This document shows, piece by piece, positions 14,444-53,353 of a stretch of 64,000 nt of DNA (positions within the stretch are counted from its first letter, which is position 1; every line of letters starts with the position of its first letter). Below the pieces are notes generated by a model. That model was not told the DNA's origin. It ran no database searches and saw only the letters and a list, made by a program, of their open reading frames with translations. This DNA is from a virus. Lineage: Duplodnaviria > Caudoviricetes. Both the position numbers and the translations under genes were made by a program. The DNA lies in the IMG/VR virus record IMGVR_UViG_3300028171_000090, positions 96,001 to 160,000 of that record; one strand, written 5' to 3'.

Positions 14444-14462
14444 GATACATTATATTAATGAG
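14444..14462 (+). promoter_or_regulatory. Early-type promoter
   Basis: GATACATTATA-TTA-ATGAG, followed by hairpin AGCATATA-CAAAA-TATATGCT. Confidence 0.65.
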
Positions 14463-47991: not shown

Positions 47992-49455
47992 CTATTTTAC
48001 GTTTACGATTGTGAACTGTTTGGCACGTTTGAGAAGGAACTTCTTCCGAGCCTTGAATTGGTCTCTGCACGATGAGAATCCCATATCAATAATTTCAAGA
48101 TAAGTTACATCCCCAATATTACGTAAACGTCCTGATACCTGTTTTGCGGTAATCTCAGAACGATACGGTTCACACATTACAAGATAGTGTAAACCTGGTA
48201 TATCATCACCTGTACCTAATGATTTAGTCGTAGATAAGATGATTTGTTTTTGTAGCTGAGCTTCCTTCTTTTCCTTCGTTTTCATATCGGACGTATACAT
48301 CCCTATATTCCCTGCGAAGTGAGGATATCGCTGAAGAATACCTTCCTTAACGATACGTGTAGCCGTCAGCTTCTTCAATAAGAATACAATTCTCATGTCA
48401 GGGTTCTCTGCTAACTTCTGTTCTATACTATCTAATACTAAGAAGATAGACTTGAAGAATAGATCAGAACCCTTTTGTTCTACACAGTAGTCCATATACT
48501 TATTTGTATCCAAGCCATGCATGTTTCGATATGTAGCTTGCAACACACCTGATGGAGCACTGTCATACTGTAGAATTAACATATTCATGTAATTATCTTC
48601 TTTCTCTTTATGGACAAAGAAGTTTGGAATATTTGCAAAGACACGATTATAAATATAGTCCTCGTTATGATTCGAGCGACCTGCGGTTGCTGTTAGATAT
48701 AACGTGTACTTTGTATTTGAGTATAAATCCATCTTCAGCATATTGTGCATATGTAAATGAGCTTCGTCATATATCTTTACACCAATTCGCATTTTCTTAA
48801 ATAATGCTGTTACAGCTTCCCATCCATTACGGTCACCATAACTACGAATTGTACTATGCGAGATTAAGAAAATTTTATACTTAATATCTTTATCTTTCAT
48901 CTTCATTAACTTCTCAATAGACTTACTTCCTGAAATACGATAGATATCCCATTCAGTGATATTCGTATACTGGAATAAGCGTTCTTCCCATTGAGACATT
49001 AAGCCATTCTTTGGTACAACAATAGCCGCTCTCATTTGCATGAATCCTAATGCTGTAACCGAGCAATATGTTTTACCCTCTCCTGTATCTAGGGTTAACA
49101 TATGCCTACTATACTTTCTATTACCTTGATATTTTCCTTCACCAAGTATGTATGCAATCGCTTCTTTCTGATTATCATTTCTTGGTTTGATATTAACTTT
49201 AAACTTTGTATGTTGTACATCATCATGTTTTGAATCCATGAATGCTGTTGTATTAAACTCTTTTTCTAAGAAACTAATACCGATACCACGAGGTATCAGC
49301 AACTTTTGTTCTTCTTCAATATACTCAAGACCTACGTTCACGGTCTTGAAGTTTACTTTATCCCATACTGTTAATTGTTTCTCCAAGCTAGGAGACTGCC
49401 CTAACACGTAGGGCTGAATCTCTATGCTTGTATGTTTCACTGTAACTTTAGTCAT
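47992..49455 (-). CDS. uvsW: SF2 DNA helicase, UvsW-like
   Basis: TGEGKT, IYDEAH, LTAT, STTKSLGTGDDIP, QVSGRLR. Confidence 0.9.
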   Translation of the reverse strand: MTKVTVKHTSIEIQPYVLGQSPSLEKQLTVWDKVNFKTVNVGLEYIEEEQKLLIPRGIGISFLEKEFNTTAFMDSKHDDVQHTKFKVNIKPRNDNQKEAIAYILGEGKYQGNRKYSRHMLTLDTGEGKTYCSVTALGFMQMRAAIVVPKNGLMSQWEERLFQYTNITEWDIYRISGSKSIEKLMKMKDKDIKYKIFLISHSTIRSYGDRNGWEAVTALFKKMRIGVKIYDEAHLHMHNMLKMDLYSNTKYTLYLTATAGRSNHNEDYIYNRVFANIPNFFVHKEKEDNYMNMLILQYDSAPSGVLQATYRNMHGLDTNKYMDYCVEQKGSDLFFKSIFLVLDSIEQKLAENPDMRIVFLLKKLTATRIVKEGILQRYPHFAGNIGMYTSDMKTKEKKEAQLQKQIILSTTKSLGTGDDIPGLHYLVMCEPYRSEITAKQVSGRLRNIGDVTYLEIIDMGFSSCRDQFKARKKFLLKRAKQFTIVNVK

Positions 49456-51440
49456 TATCTATCATCTCCATATACGTCAAGTACTTGGTTATAGTCTTGC
49501 ATAAACAGCGGGTCAAACATCGACGGTGCTGTTTTCTTATATGTCATCGGACGACGAAGTTGTTCTTCAATACGTTCGAATGATAACGATACCAGTGCAG
49601 ATGGATGGAACTTCAATGCTTTCTTAACAGACATCATTTCATATTCAATCTCATCTTTCGTATAATCTGGTAGGTGTAACTTATTATTCTCATCACGCAT
49701 AATATTACGCAGGATGAGTTCAGCATGAACTAGCATTGTGCTAATCCCTGTGCTTACAAGTAGTTCACAGAATTTCTGAACCATTTCAGAAACTGTTTCA
49801 CAACCTAAGTGAGCTTTGTTATCTACAAGTGCCATGATATCTTTTAATGGTTTTGTAAGCTCATTATTGATGATTGTGATTGCAAATAGTGAACGCCCTT
49901 CTTCATCATCTTTAATCTTATTCATCGGAATCACGAACTGGTTATCAACTGGATCGTAATGCTTATCCATTAAGTCATCCAGATACTCTGAAATGAATAA
50001 CGTTGGTTCGGATTCCCCAATCTCTCGAATCGTACAGATAGGTTTCTTTGTTTTCTTTACACGAATACGGAAGTATGAAATCTTCTTATTGAATTCCATT
50101 ACTTCATCGAACTCAGATTCTGTCTGTACATCTTTCGCATCAATTACCATTTCTAATCCCTTCACATCTGCATCTGGTTGTAATACGATATCACCGCCAT
50201 CGATTGTGAAGTAGCTATCAAATCCTTCTGTCATTTTAATTTGCTTAGATTTCGTCTTCAGTAAATGTTTTGCTGACAGAATGTTCTGTGTTAGTTTCGC
50301 CGATACATCCTTAACGGCAAATAGTCCAATATGGAATCCATTGTTATTCACATAAGCTAAGTCGCCATAACATGCATAACAGATTCCTTTCTTGCTTGCA
50401 CAAGTAGACGGACTACGTAAATAGATTGTCTGACCGATTAAATGAGTATCTTCAGCAAATACTGTACGAGATACTTTTGCTTTCGGACTCTTCTTATATT
50501 TACGACCTTCAATCTTTTCTAAGTGTGTTGGTGTTAATACCGTGAACTCCACAAAGTGTTTTGTGTTACATACATATCGTGGGTCATCATGTAATTTAAT
50601 ATCCATACATAGTAAGTCTAGACGGCGTGCAAAGTAACCTGATTTACCAGTGAACTCTTTGTTCATGATTAGGGCTTTACGACCGCCGAATGCATCTAAT
50701 GTATAATAAGAAGGTTTATCGAATCCACGCGTTAATAAGTTTGTATTAATTGGCATTGGATATGTATTACCTTCTAAGTCTGATTTCATACCACCCGATA
50801 GTTGGAACTCATTCAATTGGTCAACCTTAACACCCTGACCTGAGTTCAAGAATGGTTTCAAGTTATTCGGAATTACTTTTAAGATGTCTACCATCTCAGC
50901 ACCACGACTACGGATATAGTTCTCAATCTCACTTGGTTGTAATCCATGAGGTACAACTGTATTGATTAACTCTTTGTACCGTGGGCTTATTTTTGATAAT
51001 TGGATTGTATCATATAGATTCATACCCATTGCCATGATAAGACCGAAGTCTTCATCAATCTTTGCAAGACCCTCAATGATTTTCGCACATTCCATGCTTA
51101 GGTCTTCTACTGCAACCTTACGTTTCAATGGTTCAATAATTTTGTCATCAATATACCCTTTAATCACTCGTTGGGTAATGTTAGAACAGTCCATAATTAG
51201 GTCTGGTCCTAGTTCTACTTTGTATTTAACAAAGGGTCTCCACATGATCATATTTGTAATGAAATCAGTGATATGGAGTACAAAGACGTTATCGTCGGCT
51301 TTGTTAAACTTAAATCTAATTTGTTTTTCGAAGCAATGCTTCTTCCCGATATTACGTTTCATGTAATCGTAGCGTTTATCGAATTCTGCTCTCCACGCTT
51401 TTTTACCTGATAAGACTTCTTTAATAATAACAACTGACAT
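49455..51440 (-). CDS. rpoC: RNA polymerase beta-prime subunit, C-terminal half (probably non-virion RNAP)
   Basis: Bridge helix KSGYFARRL, Zn site LRSPSTC...ICYACYG, trigger loop LTQNILSAKH, SLSFE; GGAGGGAG RBS. Confidence 0.92.
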   Translation of the reverse strand: MSVVIIKEVLSGKKAWRAEFDKRYDYMKRNIGKKHCFEKQIRFKFNKADDNVFVLHITDFITNMIMWRPFVKYKVELGPDLIMDCSNITQRVIKGYIDDKIIEPLKRKVAVEDLSMECAKIIEGLAKIDEDFGLIMAMGMNLYDTIQLSKISPRYKELINTVVPHGLQPSEIENYIRSRGAEMVDILKVIPNNLKPFLNSGQGVKVDQLNEFQLSGGMKSDLEGNTYPMPINTNLLTRGFDKPSYYTLDAFGGRKALIMNKEFTGKSGYFARRLDLLCMDIKLHDDPRYVCNTKHFVEFTVLTPTHLEKIEGRKYKKSPKAKVSRTVFAEDTHLIGQTIYLRSPSTCASKKGICYACYGDLAYVNNNGFHIGLFAVKDVSAKLTQNILSAKHLLKTKSKQIKMTEGFDSYFTIDGGDIVLQPDADVKGLEMVIDAKDVQTESEFDEVMEFNKKISYFRIRVKKTKKPICTIREIGESEPTLFISEYLDDLMDKHYDPVDNQFVIPMNKIKDDEEGRSLFAITIINNELTKPLKDIMALVDNKAHLGCETVSEMVQKFCELLVSTGISTMLVHAELILRNIMRDENNKLHLPDYTKDEIEYEMMSVKKALKFHPSALVSLSFERIEEQLRRPMTYKKTAPSMFDPLFMQDYNQVLDVYGDDR

Positions 51441-51475
51441 GTTATTAACTCCCTCCAAATATTTAATTTCTATAT

Positions 51476-51494
51476 CTCACGTAGATAATGTTTA
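51476..51494 (-). promoter_or_regulatory. Early-type promoter of the beta-prime/helicase operon
   Basis: TAAACATTATC-TAC-GTGAG. Confidence 0.65.
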
Positions 51495-51594
51495 CTTATA
51501 ATCTACATTAAATATTAACATGTTACTCCTATATTAGATGGCGATTTTTTACTATGAACCCAAAAAAATAAGGGAACCGAAGTTCCCTTTAATC

Positions 51595-52086
51595 TTAATA
51601 TTTACTACGAGCATTTGTGTAATCTTCGTTAATACGATCAGTTGGAATATAAACGTATACTGTATTTGATTCTGTAATCTTTGCACCTTCCCAATGTGGT
51701 GAATAATCTTTACGTTTAATATTAACTTTTGTTGTAGTAAATACATCTTTCATAGATGCATTCTCTCTAGTTATAATCTTACCATTCTCTGTACGATAAT
51801 TACCTACAACATAATCTCCATGGAATGGTGTTACTGAGCGAACCGTTATAGTAGAACCAGTATCACGTTTTTCATAAGTCATCACATTACGTAATGCACG
51901 ATTTTTAAAATTAGTTCTACCTTGCTTTCCTACATGAATGTGAATACTTGTATTATCATCAATCATACGTTCAAGGAAATCAGCTTCATCTTGATTTAAT
52001 AACCCGTGGGATACAATCTCTTTCATCTTTTCAGTACCTGTTTTATAAATACTAGTATTTCCGAATAATGCTAATAAGTTCGTCAT
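51595..52086 (-). CDS. Hypothetical protein, paralogue of 52265..52726
   Basis: AAGGAG RBS; GLLNQDEADFL vs NLLTKQEWEKL; ends VYVYIP. Confidence 0.75.
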   Translation of the reverse strand: MTNLLALFGNTSIYKTGTEKMKEIVSHGLLNQDEADFLERMIDDNTSIHIHVGKQGRTNFKNRALRNVMTYEKRDTGSTITVRSVTPFHGDYVVGNYRTENGKIITRENASMKDVFTTTKVNIKRKDYSPHWEGAKITESNTVYVYIPTDRINEDYTNARSKY

Positions 52087-52104
52087 GATAATATCTCCTT
52101 TAAT

Positions 52105-52188
52105 CTATACATGTTTTTCATGTATAGTGAATATTGTTATGGACAACATTCAAACCTTTATTTGTCTACCTCACTATTATAATATATA
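52105..52188 (-). promoter_or_regulatory. Early promoter plus conserved two-hairpin leader (copy 1)
   Basis: Promoter 52188-52170; 28-nt motif 52131-52158; CTATACATG-AAAAA-CATGTATAG. Confidence 0.7.
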
Positions 52189-52264
52189 TCTTAATATATG
52201 TTAATTACGATTTTATCTATGTTCCTAAAAAAATAAGAGAACCGAAGTTCTCTTATTGTTTCTC

Positions 52265-52726
52265 CTATAATCTATAGGAAGGAATGTAGATTGACATTCT
52301 CGATGAGAATGCGGATGGCTTAATAGTATTCTCTCTACTTTCCGCTGCATTTGTAGTCACCAGCATAACGGCGAAAACATCATCCATCTCAGGTACTTTC
52401 TTTTGTGTTTCCATGCCCACTTTATGGACAAGGGTGCCAAATTCAAACTCCCCAAATAATGGTATAATATCTCTAGTAGTAATAATCATGGTGTCATCCA
52501 CTTGGATAGCCGTGTCTATTATGGTAATCTCATTGTACTTGAATGGCTCCAAGAACTCTTTTCCATAATACACACTAAGTTCAGTTGTGTGGTTGATTTC
52601 GATTAATTTCTCCCACTCCTGTTTTGTGAGCAAGTTCTCATTCAATAGCGTATCTAATAACGCTCTTTGATGAATTCCTCTTGCACGTGTAACTTCTTCT
52701 CGGTTAACTAGTAAATGCTTTTCCAT
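52265..52726 (-). CDS. Hypothetical protein, paralogue of 51595..52086
   Basis: AAGGAG RBS; ends MSIYIP. Confidence 0.75.
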   Translation of the reverse strand: MEKHLLVNREEVTRARGIHQRALLDTLLNENLLTKQEWEKLIEINHTTELSVYYGKEFLEPFKYNEITIIDTAIQVDDTMIITTRDIIPLFGEFEFGTLVHKVGMETQKKVPEMDDVFAVMLVTTNAAESRENTIKPSAFSSRMSIYIPSYRL

Positions 52727-52743
52727 TTCTCTACTCCTTTATA

Positions 52744-52830
52744 TATGACACCTCTTTTAGGACGTCATAGCATATTGTTTCGGACAACATGCAAACCTTG
52801 TTATGCTGTGCTACACTAGTATAATGTATA
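52744..52830 (-). promoter_or_regulatory. Early promoter plus conserved two-hairpin leader (copy 2)
   Basis: Promoter 52830-52812; 28-nt motif 52772-52799 (25/28 identical to copy 1); TATGAC..CCT-AAAAG-AGG..GTCATA. Confidence 0.7.
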
Positions 52831-52903
52831 TTTGGAAAAGAGTCTATTCCGTTTTTCTATGATCCGGCAAAAAAGACGGTAGAGCCTAAGCTCTACCATC
52901 TAA

Positions 52904-53353
52904 TTATTTCTTAACTTTCTTAGCAACCTTTTTAGGTCCATTTAAGATACGTTGTTTGTTTTGACGAACACGAGAAGCTGCTTGTCCACGATACTTCTTC
53001 GTTAATTTGTCAAGAAGGTGTTTACGCACTTTCCAGATTGTAATAAGTTTCTTGAAGTCGCGGTCACCTTTCTCACGAGCAATTGCAAGAATTGCTTGAG
53101 ATTCAGCACGAGATAATTTTGCAGTTTTATCGAAACGTACAATTGTTTTCTCACTAAGCATACCTAAAGCTACTGCTTCATCATACTCAGGGCTTTGTAA
53201 GAACTCTGATAATTCTTCTTCAGTAAGCTCATCTTGTAAAATAGCTTCTGAGATTAATACATCGTTTTCTGGGTCTGCTTCAGTTAACTGAGCAGTAAGA
53301 CCCTCAATACCACTTTCATTTAAGATAGAAGTAATTTGAGTTAAATCAATCAT
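52904..53353 (-). CDS. Probable internal head protein (acidic N-terminal propeptide, basic C-terminus)
   Basis: AGGAGG RBS at 53353, late promoter AACA-TGATTA-TA (53417-53406), LNE/S, LTE/A, ISE/A sites. Confidence 0.6.
   Translation of the reverse strand: MIDLTQITSILNESGIEGLTAQLTEADPENDVLISEAILQDELTEEELSEFLQSPEYDEAVALGMLSEKTIVRFDKTAKLSRAESQAILAIAREKGDRDFKKLITIWKVRKHLLDKLTKKYRGQAASRVRQNKQRILNGPKKVAKKVKK

Follow-up and report, generated by a model that had tools for sequence, protein, structure and literature searches.

Pseudoknots and protein-binding operators in the leaders of phage mRNAs are an already known kind of element. The mRNA for T4 gene 32 carries a 5' pseudoknot that nucleates the repressor (PMC535899), and the +42 form of the tisB mRNA has a 5' pseudoknot that acts as a standby element and binds both ribosomal protein S1 and the 30S ribosomal subunit (PMC7708055). 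The early genes of phage AR9 follow virion RNA polymerase promoters with the consensus AAATATATATTAT-(6N)-G+1, and the transcriptome paper for this phage describes long 5' untranslated regions (UTRs) along with an unexplained motif predicted in those of early genes (PMC5312081). Here we describe an RNA element located in the leaders of two adjacent paralogous genes, A and B, on the minus strand of a 64,000-nucleotide window, which corresponds to bases 96001-160000 of the 223-kilobase (kb) IMG/VR virus record IMGVR_UViG_3300028171_000090 and has a G+C content of 35%. The element is composed of a hairpin with a fixed tip (H1), a short single-stranded flank on its 5' side, and a second hairpin (H2) whose sequence is unrelated from copy to copy. 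Comparison of 13 copies from two diverged giant phages demonstrates that it is a selected RNA structure with a sequence-specific tip and flank. The element is new in that it belongs to no Rfam family.

The two leaders share a 28-nucleotide block, AAGGTTTG[A/C]ATGTTGTCC[AT/GA]AACAATAT, which is found twice in the window, at 52131-52158 (leader A) and 52772-52799 (leader B), both on the minus strand, against a chance expectation of 0.00 matches even when three mismatches are allowed. As stated in the first-pass annotation of the window, the copies are identical at 25 of the 28 positions (89%), and two of the three differences fall in the pentaloop of H1, which is CCAUA in leader A and CCGAA in leader B. 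The hairpin proposed there is also predicted by RNAfold in both leaders. However, its stem has nine base pairs rather than the annotated seven, because the third difference (A versus C) is offset by U versus G just beyond the block. The G-U pair of H1 can form on the minus (transcribed) strand only, again as annotated.

In leader A, H1 occupies positions 52129-52151 (stem 52143-52151 and 52129-52137, loop 52138-52142) and is preceded by the flank AAGG at 52155-52158 and an invariant UU(U) at 52152-52154. The equivalent features in leader B are H1 at 52770-52792 (stem 52784-52792 and 52770-52778, loop 52779-52783), AAGG at 52796-52799 and UUU at 52793-52795. The fold continues with an abutting H2 and an unpaired Shine-Dalgarno (SD) sequence, AAAGGAG. 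In leader A, H2 (52105-52127, nine base pairs, CUAUACAUG-AAAAA-CAUGUAUAG) begins one nucleotide after H1, whereas in leader B it follows H1 directly (52744-52769, ten pairs with one bulge, UAUGACGUCC-UAAAA-GAGGUGUCAUA). The two H2 sequences are unrelated, yet both end three nucleotides 5' of AAAGGAG, which agrees with the annotation of a second stem with a different sequence and an A-rich pentaloop just before this site. Relative to shuffled sequences, H2 alone is unusually stable (z = -4.9 for leader A and -3.7 for leader B), and the values for the whole leaders are -2.6 and -2.3, respectively. The SD sequence of leader A (52095-52101) is separated by an 8-nucleotide spacer from the ATG at 52084-52086, and that of leader B (52734-52740) by a 7-nucleotide spacer from the ATG at 52724-52726. 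Thus, the SD sequence is abutted by H2 rather than by H1, which ends 42-43 nucleotides 5' of the ATG. No U tract follows H1 or H2 in the window copies, and so neither hairpin has the makeup of an intrinsic terminator. The elements proper span 52095-52187 and 52734-52829; the annotated interval, 52105-52799, takes in both leaders and also the intervening gene. The proteins encoded by genes A and B are only 23% identical (E = 4e-07), bearing out the claim that the coding regions have diverged far more than the block.

One part of the first-pass annotation that must be revised is the idea of a duplication confined to two leaders. A word search followed by a covariance model (R1) uncovered five strong copies in the genome (44-51 bits), located at genome positions 83206, 83809 and 87885 on the plus strand and in the two window leaders (50.7 bits for leader A and 43.8 bits for leader B), along with one weak variant copy at genome position 82028. 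Every genome copy lies ahead of a gene for a family of approximately 160-amino-acid proteins that share a C-terminal hYIPxxRh motif, and at least 15 members of this family are arrayed at 79-91 kb of the genome. The element also has relatives elsewhere. A sister giant phage, represented by a 230-kb contig with loci L244 and L283, shares the gene array, with proteins 27-44% identical, and carries at least seven leaders of the same type before orthologous genes, including one copy that lies after a terminator. H1 is retained in four of five orthologous gene pairs. In the fifth pair, the sister-phage gene (L244, reverse strand, 6406) has both H1 and H2, but in its ortholog at genome position 84541 (L004:3541) the promoter, which is of the same type, is followed by a plain leader that is short and has no H1. 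These sequences point to loss or gain of the element within the array.

The 13 leaders of this type in the two phages (hereafter own-type leaders) have a uniform layout. H2 begins 0-2 nucleotides from H1, has 7-10 pairs and mostly an A-rich loop, is unrelated in sequence among copies, and ends 2-8 nucleotides before an unpaired SD sequence. All copies are oriented with the gene and sit at a fixed distance from its start codon, such that the span from flank to AUG is 68-80 nucleotides in 12 of the 13 leaders. The exception (S_3848) scored 61 nucleotides, probably due to a miscalled start.

Alignment of these 13 copies provides the evidence for selection on RNA structure. Within the H1 stem, 97.4% of the cells are paired, versus 80% in shuffled controls and 38-64% in controls with a slid partner, and six of the nine pairs exhibit changes on both sides. 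Thus, the relatives do not conserve the sequence without the pairing, an outcome that would have favored the DNA operator offered as the other choice in the first-pass annotation. Seven cells are G-U, and the same cells would be A·C on the opposite strand. The outer six pairs vary, and the top of the hairpin (UGU / CCWUA / ACA) is fixed. Approximately 13 bases per element are invariant, comprising the GG of the flank, the U that follows, the top pairs U-A, G-C and U-A, and the CC and last A of the loop. Sequence constraint is also suggested by a near-identical strain (L162), where 36 substitutions are present in the 954 coding nucleotides of both window genes and only one in the 355 nucleotides between genes, with none in either leader. 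This pattern suggests that the leaders are under purifying selection.

Two copies, at 83206 and 83809, start approximately 10 nucleotides past the preceding gene's stop codon without an intervening promoter, and therefore the element is not part of a promoter. Together with the compensatory changes and the strand-specific G-U pairs, these intercistronic copies identify the element as an RNA structure rather than a DNA operator. A repressor operator, a promoter part, or a hairpin signal in single-stranded DNA would be consistent with the inverted repeat and with the location of four of the six genome copies at 14-16 base pairs downstream of the promoter start. We consider a DNA-level element of this sort very improbable, however, given that the outer arms covary where a dimeric operator would be expected to keep them, that only one strand can form the G-U pairs, that two copies lack a promoter, and that orientation and distance to the start codon are fixed relative to the gene. 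A promoter element for a phage polymerase was likewise rejected, as the block has 5-6 copies compared with approximately 28 early promoters and is twice found without one. The AR9 late consensus AACA-N6-TA/G fits the block by chance, in leader B only.

We give next to no credence to the view that the block is a neutral relic of leader co-duplication or gene conversion. The window genes are adjacent paralogs, and tandem arrays do favor gene conversion. However, H2 and the remainder of the leader have not been homogenized, the core is present in unrelated phages as well (see below), and compensatory changes have been kept between phages whose orthologs are only 27-44% identical. Neutral duplication is ruled out by this covariation across diverged copies. 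Of the original proposal of a conserved cis-regulatory RNA or operator, the conserved cis-acting RNA therefore stands and the DNA operator does not, and the word "regulatory" is an interpretation.

To look beyond the two giant phages, patterns built from the constant bases were scanned against other sequences. Most matches arose by chance, but there was a large excess of matches with fully complementary outer stems, wherein at least five of six pairs were formed in 10-17 matches per scan, versus about 3% of matches by chance. These matches define two groups, M and T, which share with the giant phages a common core of GG-UU-stem-UGU-CCWUA-ACA-stem. About 15-17 bases were fixed in the patterns themselves, and hence their invariance in groups M and T in part reflects ascertainment. 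The existence of the families, their stems and their positions do not.

Group M representatives are found on podovirus-like contigs and have the form AAGGUUY-N-stem-UGU-CCUUA-ACA-stem. They are located 53-62 nucleotides upstream of a conserved gene for a protein of approximately 265 amino acids, or of a gene for a 134-amino-acid protein that is inserted ahead of it, with an A/U-rich unstructured tract between the structure and the SD sequence. The larger gene heads a packaging operon that continues with genes for a 102-amino-acid protein, large terminase, portal and major head protein, and its product is encoded at no fewer than 482 loci in IMG/VR. BLASTP detected no protein common to the giant phage and the group M loci, which are fragments. 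In group M loci, examples being L013:5170-5212 and L077:4815-4856, a second conserved hairpin, AAGUAUU…AAUACUU, with a loop of AAC/AAU repeats and a TATAAT resembling a -10 element, lies just 5' of the main structure; a promoter, a terminator and a site of the Hfq type are all conceivable roles for it.

Group M also reveals pairing between the flank and the loop. Leaders for this comparison were fetched by protein similarity to avoid pattern ascertainment, and their flank and loop sequences change in step: AAGG with CCUU, ACGG with CCGU, AACGC with GCGUU, CGC with GCG, GGC with GCC, and UAGGG with CCCUA. Remoter versions have the same topology, with AGAG and CUCU plus an A-rich third loop, or with ACAC and GUGU. 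In an alignment of 34 sequences, the four flank-loop pairs are formed in 83% of cells versus 73% in shuffles. Nine cells are double-changed versus 1.8 expected, a number reached in none of 500 shuffles (slid registers all score lower), although this covariation rests on few independent events. The flank-loop covariation supports an H-type pseudoknot for group M. In the giant phage, H1 is probably half of such a pseudoknot as well, formed with the AAGG flank through GG:CC and A:U pairs, and one own-type copy has an A:U to U:A swap at the fourth flank-loop pair.

The second group of matches is bacterial. Group T representatives occur in members of the candidate phyla radiation (CPR; Saccharibacteria, Doudnabacteria and Paceibacteria), in Bacteroidia and in Gammaproteobacteria, where the core comes after a stop codon and is followed by a U tract. 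Judging from this arrangement, the group T copies look like intrinsic terminators. No neighboring genes common to these copies were found, and each genome has only one or two of them, which argues against a repeat resembling the repetitive extragenic palindromic elements. Among the hosts are two Bacteroidia type II-C CRISPR (clustered regularly interspaced short palindromic repeats) loci, L262:7150-7260 on the plus strand and L186 on the reverse strand at approximately 2560-2700, where the core serves as the 3' hairpin and terminator of the trans-activating CRISPR RNA (tracrRNA). Upstream of it are an anti-repeat ending in GAAGCAAAUCACAAU and the nexus AAGGAUUAUUCCGU, and a divergent cas9 gene (RuvC_III, HNH) is alongside. 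We also observed a near-identical 45-nucleotide hairpin with a U tract (…AAGGUUUGCCAGUUGUCCUUAACAACUGG UUUU) after unrelated genes at nine loci (L213, L184, L206, L194, L180, L183, L254, L265 and L274). Conserved across phyla, this hairpin occurs in CPR phyla and Gammaproteobacteria, and a genome again carries just one or two copies.

Given its layout in the own-type leaders, we consider it moderately probable that the element acts post-transcriptionally and in cis, as a docking or ribosome-access element that affects translation, mRNA lifetime, or both. In this model, a first module would consist of the single-stranded GG-UU flank and the 9-base-pair H1, wherein the flank pairs with the loop to yield a compact H-type pseudoknot. 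This pseudoknot would be the docking platform for a factor, which might be the 30S subunit itself or else a protein of the phage or its host. The second module, H2, would be stacked onto the first and, ending near the unpaired SD sequence, would act as a rigid spacer of arbitrary sequence that sets the bound factor beside the ribosome-binding site. Docking would thereby determine how well the mRNAs of this early gene family are translated, how long they last, or both.

Several observations dampen our enthusiasm for this docking model. The pseudoknot stem of the own-type copies is weak, since its third pair is always replaced by a mismatch, either A·A or C·A, which leaves two G-C pairs and one or two A-U pairs; in leader B, with the loop CCGAA, only the two G-C pairs remain. 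When all nine H1 pairs are formed, the loop that crosses the pseudoknot stem has just 0-1 nucleotides, and from this geometry the top UGU/ACA pairs would have to open. Such opening upon knot formation might be the reason that these top pairs never covary. In bacteria, the core also appears to serve as an intrinsic terminator, and a module of generic use for stability or structure would account for this no less well than a translation operator. The pseudoknot in this phage, a reader of the invariant bases and an effect on expression are all things that we infer. Moreover, searches of Pfam, PHROGs and the PDB revealed no recognizable RNA-binding fold in the downstream proteins, and these proteins differ between the phage groups, such that simple autoregulation is no general explanation.

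Known leader elements resemble the docking arrangement to different degrees. If its flank and loop pair as proposed, the element would resemble the gene 32 operators of T4 and RB69 in being a compact pseudoknot of about 28-33 nucleotides at the 5' edge of a leader, tens of nucleotides 5' of the SD sequence, whose structure is conserved while its sequence drifts (PMC535899). Group M adds a further parallel in its A/U-rich unstructured tract from the knot to the SD sequence. In all 13 own-type leaders, however, the UUAAA/UAAA-type A/U-rich tract of gene 32 is replaced by H2. Furthermore, the genes downstream are several and different, and carry no signature of an oligonucleotide/oligosaccharide-binding fold or single-stranded DNA-binding protein. 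There is also no sequence similarity between the two systems. The tisB mRNA likewise has a 5'-proximal pseudoknot ahead of its ribosome-binding site that has been proposed to be read by the ribosome itself, a precedent for a knot of this sort that functions with no regulator of its own. The tisB ribosome-binding site differs in being sequestered about 100 nucleotides away and requiring standby loading, whereas here the SD sequence is open and about 45 nucleotides away, and dependence on S1 is doubtful for a Firmicute-type host. The coat protein operators of MS2 and PP7 and the operator of T4 gp43 resemble H1 in having a variable stem with a fixed loop and closing bases ahead of a phage gene. 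Those operators overlap the SD sequence or start codon, but H1 lies 45 nucleotides upstream, and the loop sequences are unrelated.

The strongest rival to the docking model is a self-contained module for mRNA stability or processing, to which we assign a low though appreciable likelihood. The knotted hairpin might block exonucleases, either RNase J1 arriving from the 5' side or, where the structure sits at a transcript end, 3' exonucleases. The GG-UUU flank might also mark a site for endonuclease cutting that leaves a protected 5' end. In this scenario, no specific factor would read the loop. In favor of such a module, the core is found near 5' ends, in intercistronic positions, and as a terminator at 3' ends, including that of a tracrRNA. 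The group M loci and this genome have no protein in common, and small 5' hairpins open other early leaders of the phage. However, a pure roadblock needs no set of approximately 13 invariant bases maintained across proteins that are about 40% identical. In addition, the 14-16 unpaired nucleotides ahead of the structure would still admit nucleases that depend on the 5' end unless the RNA is processed, and the element is present only in leaders of the one paralog family.

Both window leaders are preceded by ATAYATTAT-N6-G, as is characteristic of AR9-type early promoters. For leader A, the sequence ATATATTAT-N6-G at 52172-52187 matches the AR9 consensus and predicts transcription from the G at 52172. 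For leader B, the sequence ATACATTAT-N6-G at 52814-52829 predicts a start at the G at 52814. These starts yield leaders of 86 and 88 nucleotides, respectively, with the H1 module beginning about 14-16 nucleotides past the predicted 5' end. Gene A (51595-52086, minus strand) codes for a 163-amino-acid member of the paralog family whose fold was not recognized, and gene B (52265-52726, minus strand) codes for a 153-amino-acid paralog. Gene A ends at an intrinsic terminator, AAGGGAAC-UUCG-GUUCCCUU followed by a U tract (51562-51589), and gene B at a similar one, AAGAGAAC-UUCG-GUUCUCUU (52232-52257), in which a G-C pair is replaced by A-U in compensatory fashion. From these features, each gene appears to be an early monocistronic unit with an AR9-type promoter, leader, gene and terminator, and the entire cassette seems to have been duplicated. 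Approximately 28 AR9-type early promoters are present genome-wide, and H1 follows only four of them, all ahead of the one paralog family. Many other early transcripts have a small hairpin with an A-rich loop at or near +1, such as GAGCAUAUACAAAAUAUAUGCUC (examples are at window positions 14460 and 15901), which we take as a likely second class of structure in early leaders, simpler than the first. At 52176-52204 on the minus strand, a sigma-70-type promoter close to consensus, TTAACA-17-TATAAT (11 of 12 positions), overlaps the early promoter of leader A. Judging from the sequence alone, either polymerase might fire the leader A promoter.

The placement of two stem-loops just past a promoter, in units that are all closed by a strong terminator, raises the prospect of a signal that acts during transcription. 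The nascent knot and hairpin might act on the polymerase, either by causing a pause or by antitermination as in HK022 put and lambda nut, and so allow it to pass terminators. The GAAAA pentaloop that H2 has in two copies is reminiscent of boxB, and the group M element heads a long late operon. We find this improbable, nevertheless. Several copies are intercistronic or downstream of a terminator, no boxA consensus (CGCUCUUA) is present, and the H2 loops are variable, with GAAAA in only two of the 13 copies. Moreover, the polymerases differ (the phage virion RNA polymerase here and presumably the host enzyme in group M), and in bacteria the same hairpin appears to terminate transcription.

A riboswitch-like aptamer must also be considered, wherein the H-type pseudoknot with its conserved UU, UGU and ACA segments and constant mismatch would be the binding site for an ion or a small molecule, thereby changing ribosome access or termination. 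The size and information content of the element are near those of the smallest pseudoknot aptamers. In the preQ1-I aptamer of B. subtilis queC, the 5' strand reads A-R-A-G-G followed by UUY, resembling the flank described here. The topology and size are similar to those of preQ1-I, some group M variants have an A-rich third loop, and the core is carried by phages and by bacteria from several phyla that have no protein in common. However, the second stem has 9 base pairs as opposed to 3-4 in preQ1-I, the own-type copies lack a long A tract, the genes nearby are not queuosine genes, and neither PreQ1 nor any other riboswitch model in Rfam gave a match. The contexts are heterogeneous and non-metabolic (paralogs of no assigned function, a packaging operon, miscellaneous genes and tracrRNA), no alternative pairing that could serve as an expression platform is evident, and the SD sequence is open in the predicted folds. 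We therefore regard an aptamer as decidedly improbable. Likenesses to anticodon loops, T-loops, boxA, ribonucleic antiterminator sites and CRISPR repeats were set aside, as none of them is compatible with the loop positions that vary. A possible complementarity of AAGGUU to 16S rRNA was considered as well.

A broader proposal, which we rate as rather unlikely, is that the core represents a new class of self-sufficient H-type pseudoknot whose reader is either a small ligand or a universal machine, be it the ribosome or RNA polymerase. Such a class might have spread through, or arisen repeatedly in, unrelated phages (giant AR9-like phages and a large podovirus-like group) and bacteria of several phyla (CPR, Bacteroidia and Gammaproteobacteria), acting as a leader switch or a conditional terminator depending on what follows it.

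Database searches do not connect the element with a described family. A covariance-model comparison with Rfam 15, a check proposed in the first-pass annotation, returned no relevant match at E values up to 1-10 for window positions 51400-53000, L004, the group M loci or the group T loci. A blastn search of the region against phage records gave no match, and a literature search with the core sequence retrieved unrelated primers only. The early units of AR9 are similar in their promoter type (ATATATTAT-N6-G) and long 5' UTRs, but R1 has no significant match in AR9, nor in vB_BpuM-BpSp, Internexus or Staphylococcus phage S6.

The proteins encoded downstream give few clues. Neither window protein is matched in Pfam or PHROGs, a search of IMG/VR found no close protein relatives of either, and the protein database gave only the query protein's own cluster. 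An AlphaFold (AF2) model of the 163-amino-acid protein, built on 17 paralogs, has a predicted local distance difference test (pLDDT) score of 79 and a predicted template modeling (pTM) score of 0.72, and predicts three helices at the N terminus, a beta sheet, and one further helix at the C terminus. No PDB match to this model was found (Foldseek E > 0.007, template modeling score about 0.2; best VIA-align Z of 3.9), and a likeness to levivirus coat protein was discarded since its Z of about 3 is at the noise level. With no match in Pfam, PHROGs or the PDB, autoregulation by the gene products is neither supported nor excluded.

The window also encodes pieces of a split multisubunit RNA polymerase and a divergent family-B DNA polymerase. 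The RNA polymerase beta' piece (49455-51458) is approximately 30% identical to those of Bacillus phages AR9 and PBS1 and approximately 27% identical to those of Staphylococcus jumbo phages, from which the virus appears to be a distant uncultured relative of AR9. At 51480-51510 on the minus strand, 5' of the beta' gene, the sequence AACATGTTAATA matches the AR9 late-promoter consensus AACA-N6-TA. Given this late-type match, the polymerase gene would be expressed late or continuously.

Post-transcriptional control in giant phages that carry their own RNA polymerases is almost unexplored. The element described here is well defined and supported by covariation, and it marks one early gene family, thereby offering a handle for finding the factor that controls these genes. 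Its core recurs unexpectedly across lineages, and its presence in unrelated phages, in bacterial terminators and in the 3' hairpin of tracrRNA suggests a small, portable RNA module whose reader is perhaps universal. If this is true, the module would matter to RNA biology at large, and it would provide a compact part for engineering.

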